A model generated the notes under the pieces. That model ran no database searches. It saw only the letters and a list, made by a program, of their open reading frames with translations, and was not told the DNA's origin. Below, piece after piece: positions 1,840 to 47,285 of a DNA stretch of 64,000 nucleotides. The translations under genes and the position numbers were made by a program. The DNA is from an uncultured Poribacteria bacterium (GTDB lineage Bacteria > Poribacteria > WGA-4E > WGA-3G). The stretch lies in NCBI GenBank assembly GCA_951813565.1, contig OX638351.1:3410492-3474491 (forward strand). The letters run 5' to 3'. Each line of letters starts with the position of its first letter. Position 1 is the stretch's first letter.

Positions 1840-3555
1840 TCACGGTGCTATAACCATCCCACTCGCCAGTGTTTCCCCATCCGGACTGAATGCTACGCTA
1901 TAGAGTTCTCTGCGATGTCCCTTCAATGTCCGCAGCAGTTCGCCCGATAGTGCATTCCATAAACGCACGGTCTTGCCCTGATCGCCACTTGCTATGGTTT
2001 TGCCATCTGGACTGAACGCTACACATTTAACTTGATCTTTATGCTTCAACGTCAAAAGCGGGGCACCACTATGTACATCCCACGCGCGCGCAGTGCCATC
2101 ACGACTCCCGCTCACCAGCAGAAAACCATCCGAACTGAACGCGACAGTACTGACCCAACTCTGATGCTCTGTTATCATATTGATACGTTTACCTGTTGGC
2201 ATATCCCACAAACAGATGGTGCCAATACCACTCCCACTCGCCAGCGTTTTTCCATCCGGGCTAAATGCGACGGTTGTGACCAGACGTTTATGTCCAACCA
2301 ACGGCGGAAGCGCTGCACCTGTTTTTACATCCCACAAACCCACGGTATTGTCCCCACTGCCACTTGCTAATATCTGTCCATCGGGACTAAACGCAACGCT
2401 TGTGACCGGTTCGGTATGCCCTTCCAGTAACCGCAGCGTTTTCCCTGTCTGCACATCCCACAAATGCACGTTATTGTCCCAATTACCGCCTGCCAGTGTT
2501 TTGCCATCTGGACTGAACGCGATGCAACGGATATTCTGCGTATGGTTTACTATCTTTCGAAGTTCTCTGCTGGTTTCCACATCCCACAACCGCACGGTGT
2601 TGTCCCTACTACCACTCATCAACGTTTTACCATCTGGGCTATATGCAACGCTGATACCGCCTTCCGCATGCCCAGACAACACTCGTTGATGTGTCCCTGT
2701 CTGCACATCCCACAGCCGAATAGTTTTGTCCCAACTCCCACTTGCGAGCGTCTTTCCATCCGGACTGAACGCTACACTCACGACAGACTTGTTATGTGCA
2801 GTCAACGTCTGAAGAGATACGCCCGTTTGCGCAACCCACAAGCGGATAGTTTCGTCTTCACTTGCACTTGCCAGTGTCTTTCCATCTGGACTAAACGCTA
2901 CGTCTAAGATTTTGTCCCAATGCGCTATGAACGTCCGCAGCGTTTTCCCTGTCTGCACATCCCACGACCTCGACATTTTGTCATTGCTCCCACTTGCCAA
3001 TGTTTTCCCATCCGGACTGAATGCGACGCTTGTTACACCCCCAATATGTCCTTCAAGTGTCCGCAGATGTTTGCCGGTGTGTACATCCCACAAACGGATG
3101 GTCTCGTCCTCACTTGCACTTGTGAGCGTTTTCCCATCCTGGCTGAACGCAACGTCCGTGGTCCTGCCTTCATGTCCTTGCAGCGTCCAAAGTTCAGTGC
3201 CGGTGTGCACATCCCACACACGGACGGTTCTATCGATACTTGCACTCGCCAATAAAGAACCATCTGGACTGAACGCTACGCTCAAAATCCATTCCGTATG
3301 CCCTGTCAGCAGATTAAGGGTTTTGTCCGTCTCTACGTCATACACCCAAATACCGATGCTACAAGCGACTGCCAAGCGTTTTCCATCATCGCAACTCGCG
3401 ATATTTCCTGTTATTGAGCCTCTACCGATCCGCGCTTTCACGCCTTCGAGTAAACCTCGTAAATGCCAATCCTGCGCGTCTTGTGCAACGGTGTTTAGAG
3501 AAATAACGCATATCGCTAACCCAATCGTTAAAATCAAAAACAGCGTTTTTTGCAT
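1840..3555 (-). CDS. secreted WD40 beta-propeller repeat protein
   Basis: N-terminal signal peptide (MQKTLFLILTIGLAICVISLNTVA) followed by more than 12 WD40 units with recurring GHT..V.SVAFSPDGK.LASGS.D.T(I/V)RLWD. Same paralog family as the 44.7-64 kb array. Confidence 0.85.
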   Translation of the reverse strand: MQKTLFLILTIGLAICVISLNTVAQDAQDWHLRGLLEGVKARIGRGSITGNIASCDDGKRLAVACSIGIWVYDVETDKTLNLLTGHTEWILSVAFSPDGSLLASASIDRTVRVWDVHTGTELWTLQGHEGRTTDVAFSQDGKTLTSASEDETIRLWDVHTGKHLRTLEGHIGGVTSVAFSPDGKTLASGSNDKMSRSWDVQTGKTLRTFIAHWDKILDVAFSPDGKTLASASEDETIRLWVAQTGVSLQTLTAHNKSVVSVAFSPDGKTLASGSWDKTIRLWDVQTGTHQRVLSGHAEGGISVAYSPDGKTLMSGSRDNTVRLWDVETSRELRKIVNHTQNIRCIAFSPDGKTLAGGNWDNNVHLWDVQTGKTLRLLEGHTEPVTSVAFSPDGQILASGSGDNTVGLWDVKTGAALPPLVGHKRLVTTVAFSPDGKTLASGSGIGTICLWDMPTGKRINMITEHQSWVSTVAFSSDGFLLVSGSRDGTARAWDVHSGAPLLTLKHKDQVKCVAFSPDGKTIASGDQGKTVRLWNALSGELLRTLKGHRRELYSVAFSPDGETLASGMVIAP

Positions 3556-7406: not shown

Positions 7407-7740
7407 GGGGTGTGTAAAGTTTTTGTAGAAATCCGCACAACTCCTATTGTAGGGGCGGGTCTCCGGGAATGCCAAAAGGCATTCGGACCGTTGATTTCTT
7501 GATTTGGTGCCTGCCCGTTGCATGGCACTTCCTGCGCAGTGGCGGGGCACCAAATCAACGGTATGAATGCCTTATGACATTCCCCGGGACCCCGCCCTAC
7601 AGTGGACGCCGCGTAATCATTGCAAATTGAACCTATGTAACCAAATATTTACACACCCACACAAGAGTGCTTCTTGACAATTGAATGCCTCTGTCCTACA
7701 ATAAGGCACAGTCATTTTTGTACAAAAACTTTACACACCC
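7407..7740. repeat. MITE-like palindromic repeat, family A (two adjacent or nested copies)
   Basis: Ends are GGGTGTGTAAA...TTTACACACCC. The GC-rich palindromic core GGGCGGGTC(T/C)CCGGGAATGCC...GGCATTCCCCGGGACCCCGCCC recurs at 16578..16733, 35688..36146 and 51589..51688. Partial copies lie at 38761..38826 and 40124..40190. Confidence 0.8.
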
Positions 7741-7886
7741 ATAAAAATTTGATTTGCAGAAAATACACATTTATAGTATCATATAAATGTGCATATTTTA
7801 TCATTAAAGGTACTACATCCGTCTTTTAGCAAAACATGGTAGTGCCTTGCATTTTACTTTTTTTAGACAGATAAGGAGCAAATAAT

Positions 7887-8180
7887 ATGAGCAATGAAGC
7901 ATTAGGAATGGTTGAAACACGTGGGTTGGTCGGTGCGGTTGAAGCTGCCGACACGATGGTCAAAGCCGCGAACGTCAAATTGATTGGAAAAGAACAGGTA
8001 GGCGGTGGTTTTGTAACCGTCATGGTCCGCGGGGATGTCGGGGCAGTGCAAGCTGCCACAGATGCTGGGGCAGAAGCTGCCAAAGCAGTTGGTGAATTGG
8101 TATCAGTACACGTTATTCCGCGTCCACATTCGGATGTTGAAACGATTATTGCTGGGAAAGCTGCCGATTCGGATGAATAA
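7887..8180 (+). CDS. bacterial microcompartment shell protein, BMC-H (PduA/EutM/CcmK family, Pfam PF00936-type)
   Basis: The 97-aa protein [85 protein letters not shown] aligns to PduA/EutM almost position by position (ALGMVET.G...[40 protein letters not shown]...VHVIPRPH). AAGGAG Shine-Dalgarno 8 nt upstream. Confidence 0.95.
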
Positions 8181-8377
8181 ATTCGTTGTTTGTGTTGGAC
8201 ATGGCGCGACATAGAGATCGCGCCTACGGGAACGTGAAAGCAACTTATACTTACTATTCCCGAATCAACACATAAGCCATGGGATGCACGGATTTCTGAA
8301 CACGAATCGGTATTTATGCTACACCTATTGATTTATTCGGTTTAAGTGCGTGCCTACTTGAGGTATTGGAGGGTTGA

Positions 8378-9805
8378 ATGGCACAAATTGATGAGAAACA
8401 GATTGAACAGATTGTTTCACAAGTTTTAACAACACTGCAGAAAGATGGAACGGTTTCTGTGCCGCCTTCCGTGACATCTGGGGCGAATTCTTCGCGGTCA
8501 GGCGTTTTCGGAACTGTTGAGGAGGCTATTGGCGCAGCAAAAACAGCGCAAGAAGCACTCGTTAAACTTGGGTTTGCCAAAAGACGTGAAATTATTGAGG
8601 CGATAAAACAGGTCTCGCTTGAAAACGCAAAACGACTCGCGGAGCTGGCTGTTCAAGACACAAAAATGGGCACCGTGGAACACAAGGTGATGAAAAATGA
8701 AGGTGCTGTGAACTTGTCGCCCGGTATGGAAGACCTTGTGTCGGAGTCAATGTCCGGAGATGATGGCACGCTTTTGATTGAATATGTTCCGTTTGGTATT
8801 ATTAATTCAATTACGCCCACCACCAATCCAACTTCAACAGTTATCAACCACGCGATTATCATGATCGCTGCGGGTAACGCCGTTGTATTTAGTCCACATC
8901 CGAACGCAAGTGAATGCACGGAAGAGACAATGCATGTCATCAACGAAGGGATTGTAAAGGCAGGCGGACCTGCGAATTTACTCACCTCCGTTGCAAACGC
9001 TACGCTGCGGACTGCAAAACAAATTATGGACCATCCCGACATCGCTATGGTTGTTGCGACCGGCGGCGCAAGTGTTGTGCGGGCAGCATTAACAAGTGGC
9101 AAAAAAGCAATTGCTGCAGGACCTGGTAATCCTCCCGCGATTATAGATGAAACGGCTGATATTCCAAAAGCAGCAAGGCATGTGATTGCGGGCACAAGTT
9201 TTGACAATAACCTGCTCTGTATTGGCGAGAAAGCACTTTTTGTTGTTGAATCTGTTGCGAATGAAACGATCCAGGAATTGACAAAGAACGGTGGACATCT
9301 ACTCAGTGCAAGTCAACGCGAGGCACTTGAGGCGGTTGTCACGGAGAACGGGGAATCAAACAAGGAATATATCGGTAAAGATGCAAAGACTATCTTGGAC
9401 GCAGCAGGCATCACAGCACCCGCACAAACAGTTGCCATTGTAGTGGAAGTTCCAGCTGACCACGGGTTTGTTATCAACGAATACCTTATGCCGATTTTGC
9501 CTGTCGTTCGGGTGCGTGATTTTGACGAGGCACTCAAAGGTGCGCTCGCAGCAGATGGCGGTAGAGGACACACCGCGATGCTACACACCAACAACACAGC
9601 GCGCATCACACAATATCACAAGGCGATGAATTGTAGTGTTGTTGTTGTCAATGCCCCCTCTTATGCATGTTGTGGATTGGAAGGCGAAGGCTTTTTAGCA
9701 ATGACTATCGCCGGACCCACTGGCGAAGGATATACGCGCCCCCGCACATTTACACGCCAAAGACGATTAACCCTTGCTAACAACTTATCTGCACATACAT
9801 TATGA
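8378..9805 (+). CDS. CoA-acylating aldehyde dehydrogenase, PduP/EutE family, with N-terminal BMC encapsulation-peptide-like helix
   Basis: ALDH-EutE hallmarks are ITPTTNPTSTVINHAIIMIAAGNAVVFSPHP, the catalytic Cys region NNLLCIGEKALFV, and the ...GPTGEGYT C-terminal region. N-terminus is MAQIDEKQIEQIVSQVLTTL (amphipathic helix), then a Pro/Ser linker SVPPSVTSGANSS, then the ALDH core. This is the standard architecture of PduP/EutE encapsulation peptides. Confidence 0.9.
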   Translation: MAQIDEKQIEQIVSQVLTTLQKDGTVSVPPSVTSGANSSRSGVFGTVEEAIGAAKTAQEALVKLGFAKRREIIEAIKQVSLENAKRLAELAVQDTKMGTVEHKVMKNEGAVNLSPGMEDLVSESMSGDDGTLLIEYVPFGIINSITPTTNPTSTVINHAIIMIAAGNAVVFSPHPNASECTEETMHVINEGIVKAGGPANLLTSVANATLRTAKQIMDHPDIAMVVATGGASVVRAALTSGKKAIAAGPGNPPAIIDETADIPKAARHVIAGTSFDNNLLCIGEKALFVVESVANETIQELTKNGGHLLSASQREALEAVVTENGESNKEYIGKDAKTILDAAGITAPAQTVAIVVEVPADHGFVINEYLMPILPVVRVRDFDEALKGALAADGGRGHTAMLHTNNTARITQYHKAMNCSVVVVNAPSYACCGLEGEGFLAMTIAGPTGEGYTRPRTFTRQRRLTLANNLSAHTL

Positions 9806-9976
9806 GGGAAATAGTTTATTTACGACCAGTTTGAGTCGTTTATTATAATTAAGACAAACACTGGCAACCACAATATCGGAGAAGAACCGCTGTCAAATTT
9901 GGTGTCGCTCTGTGAGGAATGCCACTTTGATCTGCATGCGAAAAAGAAAAACTATGGCTCGTAAGGAGGAGACATT

Positions 9977-10654
9977 ATGAAACGAACACTATCGCACAAA
10001 ACGACAATATCTGTTATTTCTATAATCTTGGGTATACTCATCGGTTCTTTTTTTATGCATTATACGAATGCACAGAAATCAGAGTCAGGGGAACCCCAAT
10101 CTATTGAAGAATTTACAGGTGTCTTTGATGATGAGGCAGATATAGCAGACAACTATTTAAGAAATGGTGATTTCTATTCCAGAGACAAATCTACACGATT
10201 TAATATAGATACCAGTTACATTGACCCAGTTGCCACAGCAATCTTTTGGTATGATAAAGTGATAACCGAATTTCCAAATACTGATAAAGCGAATCAAGCT
10301 TTAAAAGCAAAAATGCAGACACTACTTGGGTGGACAGATGGTTATGGTAATGATAAAAAATATTATGGACTCTACAATAATAGTCTTGCCAAAACTAAAA
10401 TATATTTTCCACTGATTGAAACAACTTACAATAAATTAGCAGAAGACTATCCTGAAGATAGGCATCTTGAAGCATATTCTTATCAAATAGCCCAAGCATA
10501 TTGGTATAATTCGGTTGTAACTTCCAGCCTCAAGTACAGAGCAGAAGCAAAAAAATGGTTTGAAAAAACGATTAATTTAGGCAAAGGCAAATTAACATTT
10601 TACAGTCATCTTGCGAAAATGCGTTTAGATTGGTTGTCTAAACGTTCTCCGTAA
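9977..10654 (+). CDS. hypothetical secreted/membrane-anchored protein
   Basis: N-terminal hydrophobic segment (TTISVISIILGILIGSFFM). GGAGG SD upstream. No recognisable catalytic motif. Confidence 0.5.
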   Translation: MKRTLSHKTTISVISIILGILIGSFFMHYTNAQKSESGEPQSIEEFTGVFDDEADIADNYLRNGDFYSRDKSTRFNIDTSYIDPVATAIFWYDKVITEFPNTDKANQALKAKMQTLLGWTDGYGNDKKYYGLYNNSLAKTKIYFPLIETTYNKLAEDYPEDRHLEAYSYQIAQAYWYNSVVTSSLKYRAEAKKWFEKTINLGKGKLTFYSHLAKMRLDWLSKRSP

Positions 10655-10820
10655 TTTCAGTAGATTTTATAGCAAACCGTTAAGCAATTCCGCATTCAAC
10701 GTGCAAGATGTCATTAAATCAAGCACGCGGAATTATACGTAAAGTTAAATATTAACGGAAAATACCAGTCTATCTTTTCTGTCGCATTTTTGGTATATTT
10801 TGGTAAACTGTGTATAATAA

Positions 10821-11315
10821 CGTGAGCTTGATAATTAGAATGAGTATAGATGTCCGTTGGGTAGAGCGAAGCGAAACCCATAGGTGTAAACTTAAAGAAA
10901 TTTACGCGTGCTAAATACCCAACTTATGAGATGACGATAGGTGCGCGTTGTAAGTGCGCTGTTTTATCTTCCTGTAGGAGCGACCTCCTGGTCGCGACAT
11001 ATTACGAACGGTCGCGAGCTGGAGCTCGCTCCTACAAGAAGAAAATCGAGCGGACAAGGTTTCCCTCCCACAAGAGAAAATCCAGCATTTTTTCTTAAGT
11101 TGACACCTATGGGTAGAGCGAAGCGAAACCCAACAATTCAACCGTCTTGACAGTCCTAAAGAGTTGGGTTTCACTTATTTTTTTGGAAATATCGACCTCA
11201 AATAGGTCAACAACCTCTCTTTACGGTCTGTTTTTATTGTCCATTTCCGTTCTACCCCACCGAATGCCATAGGCGCATTCGGTGTTGATTCCCTACGGGA
11301 TTTATCAAACTCACG
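10821..11315. repeat. MITE-like repeat, family B
   Basis: Terminal inverted repeats CGTGAG(C/T)TTGATAA ... TTATCAAACTCACG. Internal inverted GGGTAGAGCGAAGCGAAACCCATAGGTG motifs. Paralogous copies at 15892..16298 and 16363..16519. Confidence 0.75.
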
Positions 11316-11352
11316 TTATAATAAGTTCCAACTTCCAGAAGAGGAGCAGGTC

Positions 11353-11670
11353 ATGGCAGAATCTCAAAAGGATATACTTGAATACCTAAAAGGCTATAAG
11401 GAAAGCAAAGAAGAGTCTGACATTGAGTTAGTTAAGGTTGAGTCGCGCCTTGAGGAACGGATTAAAGAAGTTAAAACAGATCTTACGAGTAACATTACAC
11501 AGCTCAAAACAGACCTTGAAAAAGACATCCGAGAAGCTAAAACAGATCTGAAAGATGACATAAAAGAGATAAGAAACAGCATGCGGACGATGACTAATCT
11601 CGTTATAGCTTGCGGCATTGGCATTCTTGGTGTAATTGTTACTTTAATTCTGAATATAGTTTCAAAATAA
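11353..11670 (+). CDS. small coiled-coil protein with C-terminal TM anchor (DUF1640-like)
   Basis: Repeating K(T/D)DL..DI.E.K heptad-like units (KTDLTSNITQLKTDLEKDIREAKTDLKDDIKEI). C-terminal hydrophobic helix LVIACGIGILGVIVTLILNIV. AGGAG SD. Confidence 0.5.
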   Translation: MAESQKDILEYLKGYKESKEESDIELVKVESRLEERIKEVKTDLTSNITQLKTDLEKDIREAKTDLKDDIKEIRNSMRTMTNLVIACGIGILGVIVTLILNIVSK

Positions 11671-11689
11671 TAGATATAGGAGATTAAAG

Positions 11690-11995
11690 ATGGCAGAAAG
11701 AGCTCCAGGCTTTGAGGATTACACACCATCCCGGTTAGAATGGTTAGCAATGGTATTAAATTCATTACACCCATATATAAACATAAGTTTAAGTAATAAG
11801 CAAATAAGTGCAGTATTTCTTCCAAAGGACGATGGGAAAACCCTTGTATTAATGGTTCGCTATCCTGAAGGTACAGACTCAAAAATAATTCAAAAATATA
11901 TACGGATCGCAGAGAATTACGTCAATGATTTGGCCAAAATTCATAAATGGGATTCATGGATTGAGATTGAAGTGGACCATGATCCACGTAAATAA
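11690..11995 (+). CDS. hypothetical protein (101 aa)
   Basis: ORF with GGAG SD immediately downstream of the previous gene. No recognisable motif. Confidence 0.4.
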   Translation: MAERAPGFEDYTPSRLEWLAMVLNSLHPYINISLSNKQISAVFLPKDDGKTLVLMVRYPEGTDSKIIQKYIRIAENYVNDLAKIHKWDSWIEIEVDHDPRK

Positions 11996-12239
11996 TCACT
12001 CACATTCCGCAGAAAACCTTACTTCTGTTAAATGCCTATTTATATCAAAAGAATGTGGAAGTCTACACCACATTCTTTTTTTGTTACCGCTTCAGTTCCC
12101 CAAACGTTATCCATATTCTGTAACCGAAGATTCCATAAAGGCGTTTTCATGGATAAACCTGTCCGTGTGAAAAGGATGGGATATAATGTGCAAAATAACT
12201 CCCTCAAGCAGTAGAGTTAGTACCGATTGGAAGGTCTAA

Positions 12240-14312
<2,073 letters not shown>

Positions 14313-14506: not shown

Positions 14507-15385
14507 TCAGCAGAGAAGATGGAGAAAAGTTATCACCTGTTTCGTACGTGGAATTCGCCGTGAATGTTCAAAAATCTTGTAGCTTACACTCTCCGACTTG
14601 CTTCCATTCGTTCGAGATTCTTTCGGTTTGCACCAGTAATTTAACGGCACTTCACCCGTTAACTCACCAACGCTTGTCCCGTTAGTAAACTGGGACGCTA
14701 ATGCCTGCGGATGAAGCGGTTGTCCGCTAACCAGATAGCAATCCTTGTTCTCGCGAAACCCATCGGAATACGCGAAGTACCGAATGACACCTGCCTCAGA
14801 AAACACAATCGCACAAACAAATCTGGATAACCTTGTATAATGAATCCCTGTGCTTGTTAAAGACGTGCCGTACTGTGCAGCAAGCGCAGCAATCGCTGGT
14901 AATCCTACTTGTGAATGGGCAGATGAATCTGCCGAAAAGATAGGGGTAGGCATTAGCAATTCAGCAGCAAATTGATTTGCTCGCTGTTCACTCTTTAGAT
15001 ATGCTTGTTTCTTCGCCTGTGCTGTGTCTTCACCCTGTTCTGCAATCATGAAATTCAATCGTTCATCCATTGAACAAGAATCAACAGTATCGCGCTCTAA
15101 CATGTAATGACCGATTTCATGCGCAATAGTGAAATTTCGGCGAGACTCTGATCGGATACGCGCATTGACAAGAATACCCCACGCATTCTCGACTCGCATC
15201 AGGCAACCGTCACAAGTGTCGGGAAGTTCACGTTCCCAGATCACAATGCCGAGTTTTGTCGCGATTTGTCTTGGGTCTATCGGAAAATCTTGTATTTTAA
15301 AGTCGCGAAGGATGCCCCATGCCGCCGCAGCGGGACTGTCCTTCGCATATTGCAGCCGATTATTCAGCATCAGCGGAACCTTCAT
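14507..15385 (-). CDS. ImmA/IrrE-family (DUF955/COG2856) zinc metallopeptidase with C-terminal extension
   Basis: HEXXH motif IAHEIGHYML plus the downstream ImmA-type motif EQRANQFAAELLMP. About 150-aa C-terminal extension of unknown function. Start trimmed to the internal Met (MKVPLM) to limit overlap with the upstream XRE gene. Confidence 0.8.
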   Translation of the reverse strand: MKVPLMLNNRLQYAKDSPAAAAWGILRDFKIQDFPIDPRQIATKLGIVIWERELPDTCDGCLMRVENAWGILVNARIRSESRRNFTIAHEIGHYMLERDTVDSCSMDERLNFMIAEQGEDTAQAKKQAYLKSEQRANQFAAELLMPTPIFSADSSAHSQVGLPAIAALAAQYGTSLTSTGIHYTRLSRFVCAIVFSEAGVIRYFAYSDGFRENKDCYLVSGQPLHPQALASQFTNGTSVGELTGEVPLNYWCKPKESRTNGSKSESVSYKIFEHSRRIPRTKQVITFLHLLC

Positions 15386-15728
15386 TCGGTGTTTCTGTTT
15401 CCGCTTGTGTCTTGAGAAATTTATAGAATTCATAGAGCGTTTCTTTATCTTTCTCCGCGAATTCCATCATTCCCCTGAACATTACATTAACCCTCGGATC
15501 CGCCAATAAGTCTTCATAACCACGGTCCTTCTTACCAAGCAGGTAATCTGTTGTTACCTTCAAGGCATCAGACAAACTGGAAAGCGTATTAAAAGAGGGT
15601 TTTCGAGTTCCTGACTCAAATTGAGAAATAGCTGCAGGCGTCAAATTCGCTGCCTTTGCCAATTCAGTTTGCGTCATTTTAAGTTCACGTCGACGTTGTT
15701 TTATTCGTGAGATAACTTCTTCACTCAT
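15360..15728 (-). CDS. XRE-family helix-turn-helix transcriptional regulator
   Basis: Classic Cro/C1 HTH LKMTQTELAKAANLTPAAISQFESGTRKPSFNTLSSLSDALKV. Sits immediately upstream of, and overlapping, the ImmA/IrrE gene. The pair is a canonical regulator-protease module. Confidence 0.8.
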   Translation of the reverse strand: MSEEVISRIKQRRRELKMTQTELAKAANLTPAAISQFESGTRKPSFNTLSSLSDALKVTTDYLLGKKDRGYEDLLADPRVNVMFRGMMEFAEKDKETLYEFYKFLKTQAETETPNEGSADAE

Positions 15729-16362: not shown

Positions 16363-16519
16363 CGTGAGTTTGATAAATAGTTAGGATTTCTACATTTCCT
16401 CTTAAAGTCCTCTGATAAGGGGGATTTAGGGGTTAAAAACACCAAAATAACGATTTTTTCAGCAAATATGCCCGTTCTCTGTTCAATTTTTGCCTGTCCA
16501 GTTAATTATCAAACTCACG
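16363..16519. repeat. MITE-like repeat, family B (short copy)
   Basis: ACGTGAGTTTGATAAATAG ... TTATCAAACTCACGT flanking a 130-bp core. Confidence 0.65.
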
Positions 16520-16577
16520 TTATCACGTAGTAAATACGTTTTCTCTTTACTCCAAATTGAGGGTGATGTTATACATT

Positions 16578-16733
16578 GGGTGTGTAAATATTTGGTTACA
16601 TAGATTCAATTTGCAATGATTACGCGGCGTTTCCACTGTAGGGCGGGGTCCCGGGGAATGCCTTAAGGCATTCCCCGGAGACCCGCCCCTACAATAGGAG
16701 TTGTGCGGATTTCTACAAAAACTTTACACACCC
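16578..16733. repeat. MITE-like repeat, family A (compact, near-perfect palindrome)
   Basis: GGGTGTGTAAATATTTGG...GGGCGGGGTCCCGGGGAATGCCTTAAGGCATTCCCCGGAGACCCGCCCC...AAACTTTACACACCC. Confidence 0.85.
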
Positions 16734-16813: not shown

Positions 16814-19800
16814 ATGAGAATTAAATATTATATCGTAATAAATTTACTTGTCTTTCTATGCTGTGTTTCGTTCGGTTATGCAGCAGAAGGCAAAAAAACG
16901 TTAGGGTTGTCGGAAGCTGCAATCCAAATACGAGATCAACTTTCTATCCGTAACATTAGAAAAGACCTTGCACGCTTATCAAGTCTTGAAAGCCGCGTTA
17001 CAGGTTATCCGCAAGCAGCAAATGGAAGTAAATATATTTTTGACCGTTTCGTTGAAATGGGATTGAAGAATGTTGAAAGTCGTGAATTTACTGTCACAGT
17101 TCCTATTGATTATGGTAATAGTGCTATTGACATCCTTTCTGCTGATGGTACGGTGCAACACACGTTCCCACTCAAACCGTTGTGGCCGAACCTTGTCCGA
17201 ACATCCCTTCTTGCCGATGGTGTCAAACATACTGTTGAAGCAGGAGAAACCCTCGAAAAAATCGCAGAAAACTACGCTGTCCCGCTAACAACTATTGCAG
17301 AAAACCCACACAACCAATATTTACCTACACCTGTTGTGGAGGGGAACACGGTTTTCATACCAACTGGCGGTCTTACCGGGCCCTTATTTTACGGAGACGA
17401 TGCCCAACTTGCAGATTTCAACGGAAGTAAAGTCGGCGGCTTTTGGTACAGGCTCCAAGAAGGTGATACACTGGCTTCACTAGCGAGACGTTATCGCGTT
17501 ACGAAAGCGAGTATAACCGATGATGTTCTCAATGGACATCTGCAGAAAGCTTCCGATGGCATTGATAACAATGAAGATGGTACTGTGGATGAATATGGCG
17601 AAATTCCGCTGTTATCAGAGATTCTTGGATGGGCGACAGATGGCATTGACAACGATGCTGATGGTTGGACAGACGAAATTCCCGGCGATGCCACAGATGG
17701 TGTTGATAATAACAAAGACGGCCGGATTGACGAGACAGGCGAATTCATCGCCGCAAGCGAATCCGATATCTTTATCCCCAAAGGCGCGATCGTTCTTGCC
17801 GAGTTTAATTCGGGTACCCGATGGATCAACGCTGCCATGCTTGGTGCCTCCGCTGTTATTTTTATCGAACCAGAAACAACAATCCGAGGCGAAGCAGAAA
17901 ACAAATTCCTCACTGTACCAGCCAACATTCCCCGATTTTGGATTTCTAATACAGATGCTGTTCAATTAAAAGATTTTCTTGCCACAGGTGAAGAGGTCAA
18001 TGTTCGCTTGCGCGGTAAAATGAAATGGGAACGACGCGTCGGTCAAAACATTCGTGGCTTTTTAGAAGGTGGCGATCCTGTCCTACGCGATGAACTAGTC
18101 GTCGTTACCGCATATTACGATTCTATGTCAGTCGTACCGGCAATTGCCCCTGGTGCTGACCCAACTTGTGGGATTGCTGTCCTAATGGAGCTTGCACGTC
18201 TGTTCGGACAACCGCAATACCGCCCTGGTCGTTCAGTACTATTTGTTGCTGTTGACGCGCATTTCCAAGGTTTAGCTGGCATGCGCGCATTTATGGAAGG
18301 TATTGGACAAGATATTGTCGGGTCAGCAACTGATTCCCCTGGAACCCCTACTTTGCAAGGGTTAAGAAGGGGTTTGTCAAATGATATTATCGAGTTTGAA
18401 GAATTAGGACGCAAACTATTACTTTCCATTGATCGGAGTATTTTGGTTGACTTGGACGCGGATTTTTACCACGGCGTGCACGGGATAAAAGAAGACCTTG
18501 AATCGCTCTCCACAACGTTGACAGGACTCTCTACAACCCGTTCTCAAATTGATTGGTTACACAGAGCGCAACGAGATTTCTCAGAACGCCAGAAAAAACA
18601 GGTGGATCGCAACCGAAAACGCGAAAAACAGGGATTCACAGAGGAAGAAAAATCAAGACTCGAAGCGAATCTCGTTCGGTTTGAAAAAGAAGCATTGCAA
18701 ACGACACACTTCCTTCGCGAGATTGTTAACCGACTGGGACAGATTCGGACATCCGCCTTGAAAACGAGTAAGGATGCTCAACGAGAACTCATTGAAACTA
18801 TCGCATTGCCTATTGCACGATTAGACACATGGGCAGTGGATAGGCTGATGCGCGAACTTGAATCAGGCGAGATAGATGACCGATACGACACGCATCCAAA
18901 CGCATCATACCTGTTACCGATGAAGGATGGAACCGATTATGAAGTGCCAACACCTGACGATCTACCACCAGAATTATTATCCGAAATTGAACAATTGAAC
19001 AAGACTCTTGCCAATTGGGAGATGAGTGATCAGCGTAAATTTGCTTTGATGTGGACACCTGACAAAATACTTGACCGCCACTTAGATTTGCCGACTCTCA
19101 GAAAAGCGAGAGATGCACGAAAGACCCTTGCAAACACAACTGAATCTAAGGAAGATGCCATACCACGAGAGCGAGTACTTCTGGAAAAAATAAAGGAAAA
19201 TCTCAAGGACACCGCTACCATTGAAAATCAAATTAAAGAAGCTATTACGAAATTGAGCAGTGATCGTGAGCACGATCTTCCACCTGAAGTATTAACGCAA
19301 TATCTAACTGAAGCATCACAAGAACGGATTAATAGAATTGATGATCAACTCCAGCAACGTTTGACCGAAGCAACTTCAGCATCTGTGGTAGGTGAAGCTG
19401 GAGATGGTTCATCTGAAAATATTCTAATTGAGGATTTGGCACGCGATAAGCAAGGCATTTTTGAAATTGCACTGCGGAATGCCCGTTTAGAACGGACGCG
19501 TATCCAGTATCTCCTTGATTCCCATGAAACCCTCACACGTGAGTTTCTTGATGAGGAGTTGCTAATTCTGAAAAGTTATCTTTCAGGTGAGGAGGTTGCA
19601 CAAGCAAAAGAGGCACGCAAACATATTGCCGCCTATCTGGTTGAAGCCGAAATCCTACAAGCAGTCAAACAGAACGCAGCTTCAGATGTGATCGCTCTTG
19701 AAAATCTAATCAAGCAGCTCCCATCGCTAACAAGGGATATAGATGCACAAACGAAGGTGCTTCTTCGCGATAATATGCTCACGCTAAGGAATGCGCGATT

Positions 19801-22800
19801 CCGAAACATTCAGAGCAGAGTTGAGAAGATGTCGCGCATAAGCGAGATAGAATATAATCGCAAACTCGCTCAGATTGAAGCCGCAGTTGCACTACAAGAC
19901 CTATTCAACCGATACTATACCTCTCTTTTCTGTAGCATTGACCTTTCCTCTCAATCGAATCAGTTCGGTGTATTTAACAAAGGATGGTTTTATGACCAAC
20001 AACCGGAATTTGTGTTACGGCGAGAGTTCGCGAGTATTGGCAATAAACTCGCTGCTTATGCAGCTGATGCTGATTTCGGTGTCCGCGTGAGGAAATTATG
20101 GCGAGCAACAGACGATCAGATTCGTCAAGCGGTTATGGCGCGACAGTGGTCAGTGGCAAGTCAGATTTCTGATAAGGCAGACCTTGAAGGGAAAACGCTT
20201 GAGACTCTGCTTAGCGCACACTATGGTAAACTCACAGGTTTAGGCGGTGTTAGCCGACTCATGAAGATGCAGTTTGAGCAGTGGCGAAACCGAGGTGAAC
20301 CGTCTGAAGATATGCTTAAGGATATGGACTATATCCGCAAAGAGGTAGAACGGTTTATCCGAAACGATGTGCGCAGCGCAAAGAAAAACCGAAAAAACAG
20401 TATCCGCATGCGTGAACAGTTAGACGCTATGCTAAGACTCCGGCACGAAGACCCCGACACATTTACTGAAGATGAGATAGAGGACATTAAAACATTAATC
20501 TCAATTGTAGGATTGGGCGGCGGTAGTAACTTTGTCAATGCAATTTCCGCGAGTGGTGGAAAAACGTGGAAAACCTATATCCCAGGGAAAATCGCCTTTG
20601 ATAGTGAGGTCGCAACACTTGTTGGTAAAACAGGCATCGCCTTTGCAACGATTGAAGACGCGCGCGTCCTTACCGATACACCGCTTGATACGATTGATCG
20701 CGTTGATCTACGTGAAGATGGCAATCTACATCAACAAGCAAAAACATTGGCATCTCTACTGATACAAGCGCTACGCGATCCACAGATGCCCACTGCAGCA
20801 CGCGTTGGAAACTTTTATTGTAACCTTTTCGGTGATGTAGTTGAATTCGATGCCCGTGAATCTGCGTTGCCAAATAAACCTGTACCATATCCGATTGTAA
20901 CGCTTCGCCGAAAACACAAAACTATGATGGGGGTACGCGGTGACTTATTCGCCATGGGCGATAATAAAGGTAATTTTGAAGTCGCTGGGTTGGCAATGGA
21001 AGGCAGAGCGACTCGCAGACTTGGTGGTGCGCAAGAAGTAGAGGCATATATCCTTGACTCCGATTCTGGGGATATTGTCTACGCTCCCGATTTAGGGAAT
21101 TACGGTGCTAAACTGCTACCGAATAAAGTGCCGATCAACACACGGCGACGGGGATGTCGGGTTGTCACTTTCCCGTGTGTATCCACAACTATCTATGATT
21201 TAGTTGACCAGCGCTATCTCCGTACCTTACGCGAATTAGAGGTGTATGATGCGTTATCCGATAGCCCACCCGAAAAATTCGGCGTGTCTAAACCGTGGCA
21301 GCAGGAAGGTGTTTCTGCAGCTGAACCGATCGCGCTTGTCTATAGCGAACCGCAAAGCCGTATAAAAATTGGGATGGCGTACGGACAAATCGGTAAACGT
21401 CTACTTCTTATTAAAGCGACCAAAAGCGGTATGAAAAATCCAACGCTTTACACTGGCGAAGGGTTTGTAGTCCGTGAAAACGGCAGTATCCGTCTCACGC
21501 CTTATGTTGTTGTACGCGATATGTGGTGGCTTGATGAGAATCGGTCTCGCCTTTACAAACGGTTCGGTATATCCAGTGATCGGCTTGATAAGTTGCATCA
21601 ATTTGCCAATGAATATCTCTCACGAGCAGAAACTGCACTTTTCCAAAACGACTACCAGCAGGCGCTGAAGTTGGCACGTGCTGCATGGGGATACGAATCA
21701 CGCGCCTATCCGGATGTAAAAAGAACTGGGAACGATGTCGTTAACGGCATTATGTTCTACCTTGCGCTCTTGATGCCGTTTGCCTACTTTATGGAACGGC
21801 TTATATTCGGTTTCCCAAACATTCACAAACAGATTTTAGCCACTTTTGGCATTTTCCTCCTTGTCTTTTACTTCTTAAGTCAGGTGCATCCAGCGTTCCA
21901 GATAACAACAACGCCCATAATTATCTTAATTGCCTTCATTGTTCTTGCGTTGACTGTGCTTGTCATCAGCATTATCGTTAGGAAATTTGAGGAACAACTT
22001 GAAAAGATACGTCAGCAGGGCAATAAGGTGTATAAAGCCGATGTCGGTAGGTTGAGCGCAAGTGCTGCAGCATTTAGCCTCGGTATCTCCAATATGCGGA
22101 AACGCAAAGGACGAACTATTCTTACGTGCGCCACATTGGTTATTCTCACGTTTACTGTCATCTCGTTTACATCGGTGCGGACGTTTATGCGTCCTAACCG
22201 AACCAGTTTGCCACAAGTTACACCGCGTTATACAGGCTTACTCATTCGCGATCAGTATTGGCGTCCTCTTGAAGAACCTATCCTTAACTCAATTCTAAAC
22301 GATATGCAGAAGACGCAAATTACTGTAAATGATTTAGAACGACTTCTGGAACAGAAAAATCTAATTCTTGCAAAGCAAGGGCAAACGCCACTGGATATAC
22401 CTGCAGCAATTGCAGGATTGCAGGAAAGTGGGTTTATCAAAAATGTTGACGAAGAACCGATTCTCGCTGTTCAAAATGTTGTCGCGCCACGCGCATGGTA
22501 CCAGTCCTCTGGAACAGGGGATCAATCTTTTGTACAACTGACGCGAAGCCCGAACACACAAGACACTGCACCACCGACACGCCCGCTCACAGGTGAACCG
22601 TTGAGCTTCGCCGCAAACATGCTTGTTGGCATGAGTGAGTCGGAACCCGCAGTCACTGGTATTGATCGCTATCTCCAATATGGAAAATGGTTTAATCGTG
22701 ATGATGCTGACAATTGGCCAACCGAGTGGCCCTACGCAATCGTTCTTCCGAAAGGGATGGCAGATCTTTTGAAACTAACCGAAAGTGATATGGGGAAAGC

Positions 22801-24097
22801 GACAATCTCTGTTTATGGTGCTGATTTTACCGTTGTCGGTGTTTTGGGGATAGGATTCAAGGATTTGACTGATAACGATGGCGAAGAAATGACACCTGTA
22901 GATTACCAATTGATGCAGCAGCAACAGAGTAGAGGTGGCACAGGCGATGAAACGCTTGAGGGGGAACTTCAAAAATATCTCCATCTCACCCCAGATAGCA
23001 TTGCAGTTTTGCCTTATGAAGTTGTCATGAACCAAGGCGGAACACTTAGAAGCGTTGCAGTCAACATGGAACCTCAAGAGAACGATCCGAAACTATTAGG
23101 TGCAATTGATAAACTTGATCTTATCATGGCACCGCTGATGAACCGCATTGCGCTTGACTTTTTTGTTGGACGCGACAAAGATACCTATCTTTATAGCAGT
23201 ATTGGTATGACCAGTTTTAGCGGCATGGGCAACCTATTTGTGCCAATTCTGATTGCTGCGTTGATTGTTCTAAATACCATGCTCGGTGCAGTTTATGAGC
23301 GCGTCCGCGAAATAAGCATTTACAGTTCTGTTGGACTCGCGCCTATCCATATCGCTTTCCTCTTCCTTGCCGAAGCGTGTGTATATGCGATTGTTGGCGC
23401 TGTTTTAGGGTATCTAATGGGACAGGTGATCGCAACAACATTGGTGCATTTCGGTTGGCTCGCGGGCTTAACGCTAAACTATTCTTCAATGTCTACAGTC
23501 GTGGCGACAGTTATTGTGATGATTGTGGTGCTGCTCAGTACGCTTTACCCTGCTATAAAAGCATCCCGCATGGCAGTGCCAGATATTGAACGAAAATGGA
23601 AGTTGCCTGAACCTGAAGGCGATATATGGCATTTCAATCTACCGTTTACCGTTTTAGCGGAAGAAGCACTTGGCTTGAACGTCTTTATGCGCGATTATTT
23701 TGATGCACATGCCGATGAGTCTGCCAGCGATTTCTATACAGACAACGTTACTTTCAGTTCTGCTGAAGAGGATTCTTATGAGATTGGGATGATGGTCTGG
23801 TTAGCGCCTTACGATTTAGGTGTAAGTCAATCTATCCAATTTATCACTTCGCCTGTCGGTGGAGAAGAAGAAGACCTTTTCAAAATCACATTAGATGTGC
23901 ACCGCGAAAGTGGTGAGATAGCGTCATGGAAACGTGTCAATCGTCGTTTCCTCAATTTGTTGCGAAAACAGTTGCTGATATGGCGAACCTTCAGCGTTGA
24001 TATCCGCTCAGAATTCCATGAACGGGGTAGAACCGAAAGCACTGATACGCCAGAGGGTACCGGGCAATTGGATCCCGTCGTGGCACCGGCGGATTAG
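16814..24097 (+). CDS. giant (2427 aa) multidomain envelope protein: signal/TM - 2x LysM - TSP3-like Ca-binding repeats - PA domain - M28-peptidase-like (apparently degenerate) domain - coiled coils - C-terminal MacB/FtsX-type permease module
   Basis: LysM: HTVEAGETLEKIAENYAVPLTTIAEN and YRLQEGDTLASLARRYRVTKASI. Ca-binding repeats: DGIDNNEDGTVDEYGE / DGIDNDADGWTDE / DGVDNNKDGRIDETGE. PA plus M28-like: VVTAYYDSMSV...GADPTCGIAVLMELARLF...VLFVAVDAHFQGLAGMRAF, with the usual His/Asp/Glu-Glu zinc-ligand positions appearing substituted. C-terminus contains TM RTILTCATLVILTFTVISF, then a roughly 350-aa loop, then FtsX-like 3-TM LIAALIVLNTMLGAVYERVREISIYSSVGLAPIHIAFLFLAEACVYAIVGAVLGYLMG. Confidence 0.85.
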   Translation: MRIKYYIVINLLVFLCCVSFGYAAEGKKTLGLSEAAIQIRDQLSIRNIRKDLARLSSLESRVTGYPQAANGSKYIFDRFVEMGLKNVESREFTVTVPIDYGNSAIDILSADGTVQHTFPLKPLWPNLVRTSLLADGVKHTVEAGETLEKIAENYAVPLTTIAENPHNQYLPTPVVEGNTVFIPTGGLTGPLFYGDDAQLADFNGSKVGGFWYRLQEGDTLASLARRYRVTKASITDDVLNGHLQKASDGIDNNEDGTVDEYGEIPLLSEILGWATDGIDNDADGWTDEIPGDATDGVDNNKDGRIDETGEFIAASESDIFIPKGAIVLAEFNSGTRWINAAMLGASAVIFIEPETTIRGEAENKFLTVPANIPRFWISNTDAVQLKDFLATGEEVNVRLRGKMKWERRVGQNIRGFLEGGDPVLRDELVVVTAYYDSMSVVPAIAPGADPTCGIAVLMELARLFGQPQYRPGRSVLFVAVDAHFQGLAGMRAFMEGIGQDIVGSATDSPGTPTLQGLRRGLSNDIIEFEELGRKLLLSIDRSILVDLDADFYHGVHGIKEDLESLSTTLTGLSTTRSQIDWLHRAQRDFSERQKKQVDRNRKREKQGFTEEEKSRLEANLVRFEKEALQTTHFLREIVNRLGQIRTSALKTSKDAQRELIETIALPIARLDTWAVDRLMRELESGEIDDRYDTHPNASYLLPMKDGTDYEVPTPDDLPPELLSEIEQLNKTLANWEMSDQRKFALMWTPDKILDRHLDLPTLRKARDARKTLANTTESKEDAIPRERVLLEKIKENLKDTATIENQIKEAITKLSSDREHDLPPEVLTQYLTEASQERINRIDDQLQQRLTEATSASVVGEAGDGSSENILIEDLARDKQGIFEIALRNARLERTRIQYLLDSHETLTREFLDEELLILKSYLSGEEVAQAKEARKHIAAYLVEAEILQAVKQNAASDVIALENLIKQLPSLTRDIDAQTKVLLRDNMLTLRNARFRNIQSRVEKMSRISEIEYNRKLAQIEAAVALQDLFNRYYTSLFCSIDLSSQSNQFGVFNKGWFYDQQPEFVLRREFASIGNKLAAYAADADFGVRVRKLWRATDDQIRQAVMARQWSVASQISDKADLEGKTLETLLSAHYGKLTGLGGVSRLMKMQFEQWRNRGEPSEDMLKDMDYIRKEVERFIRNDVRSAKKNRKNSIRMREQLDAMLRLRHEDPDTFTEDEIEDIKTLISIVGLGGGSNFVNAISASGGKTWKTYIPGKIAFDSEVATLVGKTGIAFATIEDARVLTDTPLDTIDRVDLREDGNLHQQAKTLASLLIQALRDPQMPTAARVGNFYCNLFGDVVEFDARESALPNKPVPYPIVTLRRKHKTMMGVRGDLFAMGDNKGNFEVAGLAMEGRATRRLGGAQEVEAYILDSDSGDIVYAPDLGNYGAKLLPNKVPINTRRRGCRVVTFPCVSTTIYDLVDQRYLRTLRELEVYDALSDSPPEKFGVSKPWQQEGVSAAEPIALVYSEPQSRIKIGMAYGQIGKRLLLIKATKSGMKNPTLYTGEGFVVRENGSIRLTPYVVVRDMWWLDENRSRLYKRFGISSDRLDKLHQFANEYLSRAETALFQNDYQQALKLARAAWGYESRAYPDVKRTGNDVVNGIMFYLALLMPFAYFMERLIFGFPNIHKQILATFGIFLLVFYFLSQVHPAFQITTTPIIILIAFIVLALTVLVISIIVRKFEEQLEKIRQQGNKVYKADVGRLSASAAAFSLGISNMRKRKGRTILTCATLVILTFTVISFTSVRTFMRPNRTSLPQVTPRYTGLLIRDQYWRPLEEPILNSILNDMQKTQITVNDLERLLEQKNLILAKQGQTPLDIPAAIAGLQESGFIKNVDEEPILAVQNVVAPRAWYQSSGTGDQSFVQLTRSPNTQDTAPPTRPLTGEPLSFAANMLVGMSESEPAVTGIDRYLQYGKWFNRDDADNWPTEWPYAIVLPKGMADLLKLTESDMGKATISVYGADFTVVGVLGIGFKDLTDNDGEEMTPVDYQLMQQQQSRGGTGDETLEGELQKYLHLTPDSIAVLPYEVVMNQGGTLRSVAVNMEPQENDPKLLGAIDKLDLIMAPLMNRIALDFFVGRDKDTYLYSSIGMTSFSGMGNLFVPILIAALIVLNTMLGAVYERVREISIYSSVGLAPIHIAFLFLAEACVYAIVGAVLGYLMGQVIATTLVHFGWLAGLTLNYSSMSTVVATVIVMIVVLLSTLYPAIKASRMAVPDIERKWKLPEPEGDIWHFNLPFTVLAEEALGLNVFMRDYFDAHADESASDFYTDNVTFSSAEEDSYEIGMMVWLAPYDLGVSQSIQFITSPVGGEEEDLFKITLDVHRESGEIASWKRVNRRFLNLLRKQLLIWRTFSVDIRSEFHERGRTESTDTPEGTGQLDPVVAPAD

Positions 24098-47246: not shown

Positions 47247-47285
47247 CAGAAACCTCCATAATCAATTTATGCTTACAATAATAGG

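Follow-up and report, generated by a model that had tools for sequence, protein, structure and literature searches.

The question raised by this locus is whether a shell gene of the bacterial microcompartment (BMC) type and the aldehyde dehydrogenase gene that follows it make up a compartment of their own, accompany a larger BMC cluster elsewhere, or belong to a system of another layout. Both genes lie in a stretch of 64,000 nucleotides from an uncultured poribacterium, which is referred to as the window; positions are counted from its first letter. Poribacteria rank with the most abundant symbionts of sponges. The two gene products and the N-terminal parts of the enzyme are listed below, with the basis of each assignment in brackets.

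7887..8180, + strand: BMC-H shell protein, paralogue 'H1', 97 aa (PF00936, EutM NCBIfam model, PDB matches)
8378..9805, + strand: predicted CoA-acylating aldehyde dehydrogenase (AldDH) of the EutE/PduP class, 475 aa (PRK15398, PF00171, PDB)
8378..8443, + strand: putative encapsulation peptide (EP), AldDH residues 1-22, MAQIDEKQIEQIVSQVLTTLQK (FRAG2 EP model, conservation, hydrophobic moment)
8444..8506, + strand: Pro/Ser/Thr-rich linker, AldDH residues 23-43 (low conservation, variable length)

The BMC-H protein was matched by PF00936 with an E-value of 1.6e-29 and 102 bits (cutoff 24.5), residues 5-80 covering positions 1-75 of the 75 positions of the model, and was scored at 128 bits by the EutM NCBIfam model. 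The closest solved structures were PduA, EutM and HO BMC-H (E 1e-39 and weaker). The protein had been described in an earlier note, made from the sequence alone, as PduA/EutM-like along its full length, with which the whole-domain match and the PduA and EutM structures agree. As read from the sequence, K26, N29 and R79 are identical to tiling residues of PduA, which we take to be the standard hexamer-hexamer interface residues. A PRPH motif was located at residues 78-81, and the pore stretch reads Q37-V-G-G-G-F42.

The AldDH was recognised by PF00171 in the Pfam scan and by the EutE-type NCBIfam model PRK15398 (577.5 bits versus a cutoff of 403, residues 5-471). Its top PDB matches were 4c3s (E 4.7e-116) and 5jfl (E 7.5e-110). 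Cys281, in the motif FDNNLLCIGEK, was aligned with the Cys of 4c3s, is encoded by the catalytic codon at 9218-9220, and is invariant in 33 AldDH orthologues. By these matches the protein is predicted to be a CoA-acylating enzyme of the EutE/PduP class, and the PduP/EutE signature read by the earlier note is borne out by PRK15398 and the PDB alignments. The named matches among the best 120 AldDH homologues (82-92% identical) were Candidatus Poribacteria, as were the best BMC-H loci; the non-poribacterial AldDHs among the fetched loci were at most 47% identical to the AldDH of the window. An AlphaFold2 model of the enzyme, computed from an alignment of 33 sequences (82-92% identical), reached a mean pLDDT of 35, too low for use.

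Column conservation in 30 poribacterial orthologues was 0.90 for residues 1-22, 0.62 for the linker (residues 23-43) and 0.87-0.92 for the remaining protein. The hydrophobic moment of the N-terminus peaked at 0.65 (residues 7-17). Residues 1-16 agree with 13 of 16 consensus positions of the published EP model HMMalddh_1_eutpdugrm.FRAG2 (Sutter 2021); the comparison spans model positions 1-16 of 31, where the consensus is M a e i d E e Q I E a I V s Q V and the AldDH of the window reads MAQIDEKQIEQIVSQV. The N-terminus thus has the make-up of a BMC encapsulation peptide, a predicted amphipathic helix followed by a poorly conserved linker. The same arrangement, with a Pro/Ser linker, had been noticed at first reading, and is upheld by the drop in conservation, the fit to the FRAG2 model and the hydrophobic-moment peak.

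No further BMC gene was detected in the window. Pfam scans of the larger ORFs of the 64 kb gave no PF03319, PF06130 or second PF00936, a BMC-P profile gave no match to its six frames, and tblastn gave no second BMC-H. The absence of other BMC genes had earlier been stated for more than 7 kb on either side; by Pfam, the BMC-P profile and tblastn it holds for the whole window. BMC-P genes were searched by tblastn with four BMC-P probes and with a profile built from 35 BMC-P sequences of the fetched loci. Both searches detected BMC-P in non-poribacterial loci, and neither found BMC-P within 10 kb of the AldDH module or of the PduL module described below in 31 poribacterial sources, nor in the window. 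Shell and core genes are accordingly dispersed, with no main locus of BMC-H plus BMC-P in the regions covered (10 kb on either side of the modules in the 31 poribacterial sources, and the 64-kb window).

These results could be taken to mean that the two genes are self-sufficient: BMC-H without vertex proteins would form sheets, tubes or a membrane-associated scaffold, with the EP-bearing AldDH tethered to it. Such an open assembly would agree with the lack of neighbouring BMC-P genes and with a cassette that brings its own promoter and relocates as a whole between differing flanks (see below). It would also agree with immunolocalisation of the paralogous BMC-H, for which the antibody signal was a ring near the cell membrane and not discrete polyhedra (Jahn 2016, PMC5087111). 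The second module found on the same chromosome speaks against it.

This second module was found in locus L066 and consists of a BMC-H gene (PF00936, E 2.3e-31) and a PduL gene (PF06130, E 1.3e-65); the same layout is present in L063 and L083-L085. On the poribacterial chromosome ERZ25068633 ctg160213_45x_c (5,553,991 bp), the AldDH module is located at 57-79 kb and the PduL module at 3.016-3.036 Mb. The two modules are thus 2.6-3.0 Mb apart on one 5.55-Mb chromosome, and closed chromosomes give direct evidence that they lie megabases apart. For two more chromosomes, contigs of matching length were present among the AldDH and the PduL matches. The PduL-linked BMC-H (H2) of L063 and L066 is 78-81% identical to the BMC-H of the window, and H1 and H2 both carry K26, N29 and R79-PH. 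Poribacterial PduL has an EP-like N-terminal helix, MPDxxLVELITRRVV. To our knowledge, closed shells have never been seen in Poribacteria.

Both modules are already on record. In single-cell genomes, or2341 (PF00936) followed by or2342 (PF00171, pduP) and a BMC-H plus PduL pair were described (Kamke 2014, PLoS One 9:e87353, PMC3909097), and three PF03319 (BMC-P) genes were reported at other loci of SAGs 3G and 4E (Kamke 2014 Table 2, PMC3909097). Poribacterial BMC loci with AldDH or PduL were later called "satellite-like" (Axen 2014, PMC4207490), and the type FRAG2, mostly from Poribacteria and with a BMC-P triplet of the green, grey and orange clades, was defined by Sutter 2021 (Nat Commun 12:3809, PMC8217296, Suppl. 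Data 2). In sponges, the BMC-H and PduL genes of the pair share a transcript and are strongly expressed (Jahn 2016, PMC5087111). Literature searches turned up no subsequent functional study of FRAG or FRAG2 compartments.

A self-sufficient open assembly is very unlikely in the light of the three BMC-P genes reported from poribacterial genomes (Kamke 2014 Table 2; Sutter 2021) and the second BMC-H plus PduL module on the same chromosome. Moreover, the BMC-H carries the standard tiling residues of shell-forming hexamers, and a compartment of its own would be of little use to an acylating AldDH that has no PTAC to recycle CoA. The locus is very probably the AldDH module of a fragmented, FRAG2-type metabolosome of Candidatus Poribacteria. 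The BMC-H/AldDH pair is an already catalogued module and represents no novel type of system. Since the whole poribacterial system is scattered, the pair is not a minimal compartment, nor is it the satellite of a large cluster. The earlier reading as a minimal two-gene microcompartment locus is therefore not supported, given the paralogous BMC-H and PduL genes 2.6-3.0 Mb away on a poribacterial chromosome and the BMC-P genes reported at other sites (Kamke 2014, Sutter 2021). The alternatives of that reading fared differently: the satellite of a larger BMC cluster came closest, although the system is fragmented and no larger cluster exists, and the reduced aldehyde-oxidising compartment found no support, the pair being one of several dispersed modules.

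The borders of the gene pair were determined by comparison with close relatives.

7741..9868, + strand: conserved two-gene cassette of promoter, leader, BMC-H, spacer, AldDH and short 3' tail (blastn versus close relatives)
7408..7740, no strand assigned: MITE-like repeat, left border of the cassette, outside the BMC system (terminal inverted repeats, three copies)

Homology by blastn to L002-L004 and L006 begins at 7739-7741, directly past the end of the MITE (7740). It reaches 9805 in L002 and 9868-9871 in L003, L004 and L006. Even L003, with a nucleotide identity of 92%, has different flanks on the two sides of the cassette. The order of BMC-H followed by AldDH is kept in 26 main-clade loci (L001-L025, L082) and in the distant Poribacteria L040, L045 and L046; the pair is retained in about 30 poribacterial genomes.

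The repeat is 333 bp long, non-coding and multicopy, with 24-nt terminal inverted repeats (96% complementary) and a nested palindrome with 50-nt arms, and thus has the properties of a MITE. Three copies are present in the window (at 7408, about 16.7 kb and about 36.1 kb), and none was found in the 81 other loci searched. A MITE at 7407-7740 had been recognised before, and the repeat was recovered at 7408-7740. The mobile DNA of the window comprises the MITE abutting the cassette, two TnpB genes and an IS630 transposase. For the ORFs of a 2.5-kb insert between AldDH and ligA, no convincing match was obtained with PADLOC, PHROGs, Pfam or NCBIfam.

The abundance of mobile DNA in the window (MITE, two TnpB genes, IS630 transposase) and the unstable flanks of the cassette would be expected if the pair were a decaying remnant of a complete BMC locus that was split by transposition and builds compartments no longer, a possibility raised over transposases near some BMC genes (Kamke 2014, PMC3909097). 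Decay is nevertheless hardly credible. Both ORFs are intact; identity across the main clade is 87-99% for BMC-H and 81-97% for AldDH, the latter being 65-73% in the distant L040, L045 and L046. Conservation extends to EP, catalytic Cys, promoter and leader, and transcription of the sister module in situ is high (Jahn 2016, PMC5087111). Intact ORFs, conservation and transcription of the sister module together point to purifying selection and not to decay.

Between the two genes, a spacer with a hairpin was found.

8181..8377, + strand: intercistronic spacer, 197 nt, ending in the Shine-Dalgarno sequence GGAGGG at 8368-8373 (ORF borders)
8203..8224, + strand: GC-rich RNA hairpin, stem GGCGCGA/TCGCGCC (7 bp) with an 8-nt loop (unique in the window, kept in relatives)

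The spacer, first given as 200 nt, measures 197 nt. Among 29 poribacterial sources (the window and 28 loci), its length is 145-280 nt in 23 and 30-132 nt in the remaining six. A large structured RNA in the spacer was considered and rejected, the fold of the whole spacer being no more stable than shuffles (z = -1.05). The hairpin starts 23 nt past the BMC-H stop codon, and its stem is all G-C except for one pair. It is unique in the 64-kb window, with 0 matches expected by chance, and the local fold at this site gave z = -2.5. In six close relatives the stem is invariant and the loop variable. In another clade, a different hairpin is present at the same place in 14 of 14 sequences, where it is kept via G:U changes and one change of C:G to U:A. 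A hairpin of the form GTAGGG..CCCTAC was also considered as a genome-wide REP element; this was rejected, as it occurs once per locus and in the BMC-H/AldDH spacer only.

The bases 3' of the hairpin of the window are TACGGGAACGTG, and the terminator scan did not call it. The hairpin is locus-specific and evolutionarily maintained, and it is not a canonical Rho-independent terminator or attenuator because a T-tract is lacking. The hairpin of the earlier note is therefore real and unique, with its coordinates (8201-8222) off by two bases; the attenuation proposed for it stays plausible for an element that is locus-specific and maintained across clades, although not in the canonical form.

Two separate transcription units were weighed at this point, in which the hairpin ends the BMC-H transcript, the AldDH gene has its own promoter in the spacer, and adjacency reflects ancestry and not coupled expression. 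The unusual length of the spacer in most genomes and the maintained stem-loop 3' of the BMC-H stop codon would fit such an arrangement. It is rather unlikely nonetheless: no promoter-like site was found on the + strand of 8181-8377 by consensus scan, the hairpin lacks a T-tract and was not picked up by the terminator scan, the spacer is just 30-132 nt long in six sources, and the BMC-H and PduL genes of the analogous pair form a single polycistron (Jahn 2016, PMC5087111).

Upstream of the BMC-H gene, the following elements were assigned.

7749..7777, + strand: sigma-70-like promoter, -35 TTGATT (7749-7754), 17-nt spacer, -10 TATAGT (7772-7777) (consensus scan)
7783..7886, + strand: 5' leader of about 100 nt (RNAalifold, nhmmer)

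In 25 poribacterial loci, one copy each of the motif TTGCAGAAA-N(6-14)-TAGTAT is present upstream of the AldDH-linked BMC-H gene. Its single other match among 85 loci was in the non-poribacterial L030. In the leader, a basal stem is formed by 7809-7816 (GGTACTAC) pairing with 7839-7846 (GTAGTGCC); the stem is followed by a T-rich tract and, at 7873-7878, by the Shine-Dalgarno sequence AAGGAG. When 19 orthologous leaders were folded jointly with RNAalifold, 5 of 9 basal-stem pairs showed compensatory changes, and main-clade leaders have an extra inner stem of 10 bp. By nhmmer, the leader was present upstream of the AldDH-linked BMC-H gene only, and in a regulon test the promoter/leader motif was not common to the PduL module. 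Rfam searches of leader and spacer (of the window and of L082) gave no meaningful match; a sub-threshold microRNA match in the Rfam search was the palindrome of the MITE.

A covarying basal stem, a conserved apical sequence, a T-rich tract and absence from Rfam are the traits behind a speculative and quite doubtful reading, by which the leader (about 100-146 nt) might be an unclassified cis-regulatory RNA, either a riboswitch or protein-binding. It could sense a substrate or product of the FRAG2 compartment and, with the hairpin, could set the shell-to-enzyme ratio. If this were true, the ligand of the leader RNA would show what the poribacterial FRAG2 compartment metabolises. Promoter, structured leader and intercistronic hairpin of the cassette are mentioned neither in Kamke 2014 nor in Sutter 2021; being conserved, they are possible handles for expression studies or heterologous reconstruction.

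From the parts of the FRAG2-type system, a mechanism can be proposed. The two BMC-H paralogues would tile the facets of the shell, and the three BMC-P proteins, which come from the literature only, would cap its vertices. AldDH and PduL would be drawn into the lumen by their EPs. There, AldDH would oxidise the aldehyde from a signature reaction with NAD+ and CoA to acyl-CoA, which PduL would convert to acyl-phosphate, so that CoA is recycled inside the shell. The pairing of each shell paralogue with one core enzyme in a small operon, together with the hairpin, would plausibly give more shell than enzyme transcript. Neither a signature (aldehyde-producing) enzyme nor an alcohol dehydrogenase was identified, which leaves the pathway incomplete. 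We know of no substrate or signature enzyme for any FRAG-type compartment.

Compared with PDU (PduA/PduP) and EUT (EutM/EutE) systems, the locus has the same full-length PduA/EutM-like BMC-H including K26, N29 and R79, and an AldDH of the EutE/PduP class (PRK15398) with an N-terminal amphipathic EP and linker as in PduP; PduL is the partner PTAC. The AldDH of the window is 40-47% identical to enzymes of the EUT/PDU/GRM type. Unlike PDU and EUT, the system comes without diol dehydratase, ethanolamine ammonia-lyase, BMC-T or an operon of 15-20 genes.

The BMC satellite locus of the ACI type of Acidobacteria is similar in that BMC-H is immediately followed by AldDH, remote from the BMC-P triplet (Sutter 2021). 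This order was found in acidobacterial loci including L052, L053, L057, L061, L062, L064, L071 and L079, whose BMC-H is mostly 76-78% identical to that of the window (67% in L052). The ACI AldDH, in contrast, is only 31-36% identical and of a different class, and ACI has a main locus with aldolase, whereas the poribacterial system is without a recognisable main locus.

With FRAG2 (groups A-D of Kamke 2014), the locus shares the phylum, the BMC-H/AldDH pair with its companion BMC-H plus PduL pair, and the dispersal of shell genes without a main locus. Common to both are also two BMC-H paralogues with standard interface residues and an AldDH of the eut/pdu/grm class, whose N-terminus in the window is identical to the EP model at 13 of its first 16 positions. 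The modules of SAG 4E are 21 genes apart on one contig, compared with 2.6-3.0 Mb on the closed chromosome analysed here; otherwise there is no substantial difference.

The pair consists of two genes, each preceded by a strong Shine-Dalgarno sequence:

7887-8180 (+), BMC-H shell protein, 97 aa, PF00936 (E 1.6e-29)
8378-9805 (+), aldehyde dehydrogenase (AldDH), 475 aa, NCBIfam PRK15398 (EutE-type), 577 bits

The earlier note had recognised a BMC-H protein and an EutE/PduP-type AldDH, and both assignments were correct: the PF00936 match covered the shell protein end to end, and the PRK15398 match, spanning residues 5-471, lay above the cutoff of 403. The nearest named or solved proteins of the BMC-H were EutM, PduA and a Haliangium BMC-H. 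Its pore stretch is QVGGGF, and K26, N29 and R79 are present at the positions that make up the hexamer-hexamer interface in PduA. The AldDH was aligned with the solved aldehyde dehydrogenases 4c3s (E 1e-116) and 5jfl (E 1e-110), both microcompartment-associated enzymes, and in this alignment Cys281 sits in the motif FDNNLLCIGEK.

Conservation of the N-terminus was analyzed in 30 poribacterial AldDH orthologues translated from the compared loci. Residues 1-22 (MAQIDEKQIEQIVSQVLTTLQK) were near-invariant, with a mean column conservation of 0.90 versus 0.62 for residues 23-43, which are rich in Pro, Ser, Thr and Ala and variable in sequence and length; the catalytic domain reached 0.87-0.92. The N-terminus was also compared with positions 1-16 (M-a-e-i-d-E-e-Q-I-E-a-I-V-s-Q-V) of the profile HMMalddh_1_eutpdugrm.FRAG2 (Sutter et al. 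2021, PMC8217296, supplementary data), where FRAG2 denotes a fragmented BMC type found mostly in Poribacteria. Agreement was found at 13 of the 16 positions, and two of the remaining three were next-best emissions. Judged by the conservation pattern and the profile agreement, the encapsulation peptide and Pro/Ser linker proposed earlier are real, and the peptide had already been modelled for FRAG2. The confidence of an AlphaFold model of the AldDH, made from a shallow alignment, was too low for use (pLDDT 35).

Database homologues of the AldDH, taken as the best 120, were 82-92% identical, the named ones all belonging to Candidatus Poribacteria. Scanning one genome per species for the BMC-H gave 24 poribacterial loci (87-98% identity), with AldDH directly downstream in every one and ligA next in most. 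The pair is retained in three more distant Poribacteria too (AldDH 65-73% identical). No BMC-P (vertex protein) gene was detected by profile search within 10 kb in any of the 31 poribacterial sources. By blastn against the closest relatives, homology starts at about 7741, one base past the right end of a MITE-like repeat, and in the closest loci ends near 9868; outside these bounds there is no relation even to a locus that is 92% identical in nucleotides. The conserved unit is therefore a 2.1-kb cassette. Three copies of the repeat are present in the 64 kb:

7408-7740, MITE-like repeat, stopping exactly at the start of the conserved cassette
~16380-16733, MITE-like repeat
~35790-36144, MITE-like repeat

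The copies, which contain a nested long palindrome (TGTAGGGGCGGGTCTCCGGG...) and are delimited by 24-nt terminal inverted repeats (GGGTGTGTAAAGTTTTTGTAGAAA), are identical over about the first 60 nt. No exact match to the first 20 nt of the repeat (GGGTGTGTAAAGTTTTTGTA) was found in 81 loci from other genomes. Downstream, a low-GC (~0.37) insert of 2.5 kb (9869-12300) separates AldDH from ligA; its ORFs (9977-10654, 11353-11670 and 11690-11995) gave no convincing family match. Loci L006 and L013 have other inserts at this junction (3.3 kb and 1.8 kb, respectively), and in L003 and L004 the junction is disrupted; the site is thus an insertion hotspot.

All sizeable ORFs of the window were scanned against Pfam. 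For BMC-P, a profile was made from 35 BMC-P genes of the compared loci and run against all six reading frames of the window; tblastn probes for BMC-H, AldDH and BMC-P were used as well. None of these searches detected a second BMC-H, a BMC-P, PduL (phosphotransacylase) or BMC-T gene or a recognisable signature enzyme in the 64 kb; the isolation described in the earlier note thus holds and reaches 54 kb downstream. Genes in the window encode, among others, an NAD-dependent DNA ligase, a short-chain dehydrogenase, a dockerin protein and a TIM-barrel protein resembling xylose isomerase. Further features are:

1840-3555 (-) and 44700-63814 (-), about ten WD40-repeat protein genes
14507-15433 and 15360-15728 (-), M78 peptidase and HTH pair (PADLOC: CapP E 5.8e-51, CapH E 1.5e-17)
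16814-24097 (+), gene for a 2427-aa protein
27711-28820 (+) and 59444-60556 (-), TnpB genes (IS605 OrfB / Cas12f-like TNB domain; 369 and 370 aa)
28930-29847, YhgA-like transposase
39075-39461, IS630-type transposase fragment
43544-44476, ECF-type sigma factor gene

CapP and CapH are defence-system regulators. The CapP/CapH-like pair is divergent from the 2427-aa gene, and the trio is kept in locus L001, where the orthologue of the large gene has Peptidase_M28 and FtsX domain matches. Eight of the WD40 genes form a near-continuous minus-strand array, which is directly preceded by the sigma factor gene and contains one of the TnpB genes. Poribacteria are known for eukaryote-like repeat proteins, which the WD40 genes fit.

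The spacer between the two cassette genes contains a hairpin (GGCGCGACATAGAGATCGCGCC), unique in the window; it exists as proposed earlier, at 8203-8224 rather than 8201-8222. Its 7-bp stem is invariant in six close relatives, and the loop differs. The other large poribacterial clade has a different, stronger hairpin (GTAGGGCGGGG...CCCTAC) at the same place and only there, once per locus; all 14 of 14 sequences preserve its outer stem, by way of G:U changes and a single change from C:G to U:A. The spacer between BMC-H and PduL in a paralogous pair (see below) also forms a hairpin, in which two genomes differ in a compensatory manner. None of the three hairpins is followed by a T-tract. The window hairpin was not called in a terminator scan, and the BMC-H/AldDH spacer as a whole was not unusually structured (z = -1.05) and matched no Rfam family. 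As a reasonable inference, the hairpin may stabilise the upstream shell message or partially limit read-through.

Upstream of the shell gene, a promoter and leader were recognised:

7749-7886, promoter and leader, also in 25 poribacterial loci among L001-L025 and L082; promoter read as -35 TTGATT, 17-nt spacer, -10 TATAGT
7809-7816 with 7839-7846, basal stem of the leader

In 25 poribacterial loci, a single copy of the motif TTGCAGAAA-N(6-14)-TAGTAT precedes BMC-H, and the 85 compared loci hold one other match, which is non-poribacterial. The leader ahead of AldDH-linked BMC-H genes is 100-146 nt long and, like the promoter, strongly conserved. Compensatory changes were found in five of nine basal-stem pairs among 19 orthologues; a T-rich tract is present, and main-clade leaders share the apical sequence ACAAACAGACATC. 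The leader had no Rfam match and was not found elsewhere in 1.7 Mb of compared sequence, nor is the motif shared by the PduL module. Of all the observations, only this uncharacterised RNA, for which a regulatory role may be considered, might be worth pursuing further.

Two poribacterial loci (L063 and L066) encode a BMC-H 78-81% identical to that of the window, without AldDH. Instead, a gene for a 234-aa PduL (PF06130, E 1.3e-65) begins 74 nt after the BMC-H gene (91 aa, PF00936). The PduL sequences considered were:

L066 10351-11055 and L085 10001-10714, poribacterial PduL (proteins P0121-P0240)

The PduL N-terminus consists of an EP-like helix (MPDxxLVELITRRVV) and a linker ahead of the catalytic domain. 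The four conserved cysteines of the linker (C-x2-C-x4-C-x6-C) may represent a site for metal binding or redox chemistry, one that is not known from characterised PduL. A search with this PduL gave poribacterial proteins, and the longest contigs carrying them matched contigs of the AldDH homologues in length; for one contig the presence of both modules was confirmed. On one contig of 5,553,991 bp (ERZ25068633 ctg160213_45x_c), BMC-H, AldDH and ligA lie at 57-79 kb and BMC-H and PduL at 3.016-3.036 Mb. A distance of 2.6-3.0 Mb thus separates the two modules, which lie roughly across the chromosome from each other.

Vertex genes in poribacterial genomes are reported in published work. In single-cell genomes, Kamke et al. 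(2014, PMC3909097) described four groups of BMC genes and emphasised their scattering: group A is BMC-H with PduL, and groups B and C comprise three PF03319 genes at two further loci. In SAG 4E of that study, a PF00171 gene with the annotation pduP (or2342) comes directly after a second PF00936 gene (or2341); these two are the BMC-H/AldDH pair of the window. All poribacterial loci, several with PduL or AldDH, were classed as satellite-like by Axen et al. (2014, PMC4207490). Jahn et al. (2016, PMC5087111) reported the BMC-H/PduL pair as one highly expressed polycistron and localised its BMC-H to ring-shaped, membrane-associated signals. Sutter et al. (2021, PMC8217296) introduced the FRAG types to cover shell genes dispersed across as many as six places. 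Given these descriptions, the pair is already known, a rediscovery of a catalogued module. A literature search found no later functional work on FRAG/FRAG2 compartments.

A minimal two-gene compartment, one of two readings in the earlier note, is not supported: a second module, BMC-H/PduL, shares a poribacterial chromosome with the pair, and BMC-P genes have been published for Poribacteria. The other, a satellite of a larger cluster, was right in spirit as to the satellite-like nature; there is no main cluster, the modules being scattered. Best supported is that the cassette is one part of a FRAG2 metabolosome with its sister cassette and vertex genes elsewhere. The cassette would contribute one of the shell paralogues together with the core enzyme for aldehyde oxidation; the second paralogue, and PduL for recycling CoA, would come from the sister cassette, and the vertex proteins that would close the shell from other places.

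A comparable arrangement is the AldDH satellite of the ACI type in Acidobacteria, which has the same two-gene layout, BMC-H then AldDH, but an AldDH of an unrelated class, only 31-36% identical to that of the window. This layout was found in Acidobacteria loci L052, L053, L057, L061, L062, L064, L071 and L079, whose BMC-H proteins are mostly 76-78% identical to the window BMC-H (67% in L052), and these loci agree with the published ACI satellite locus.
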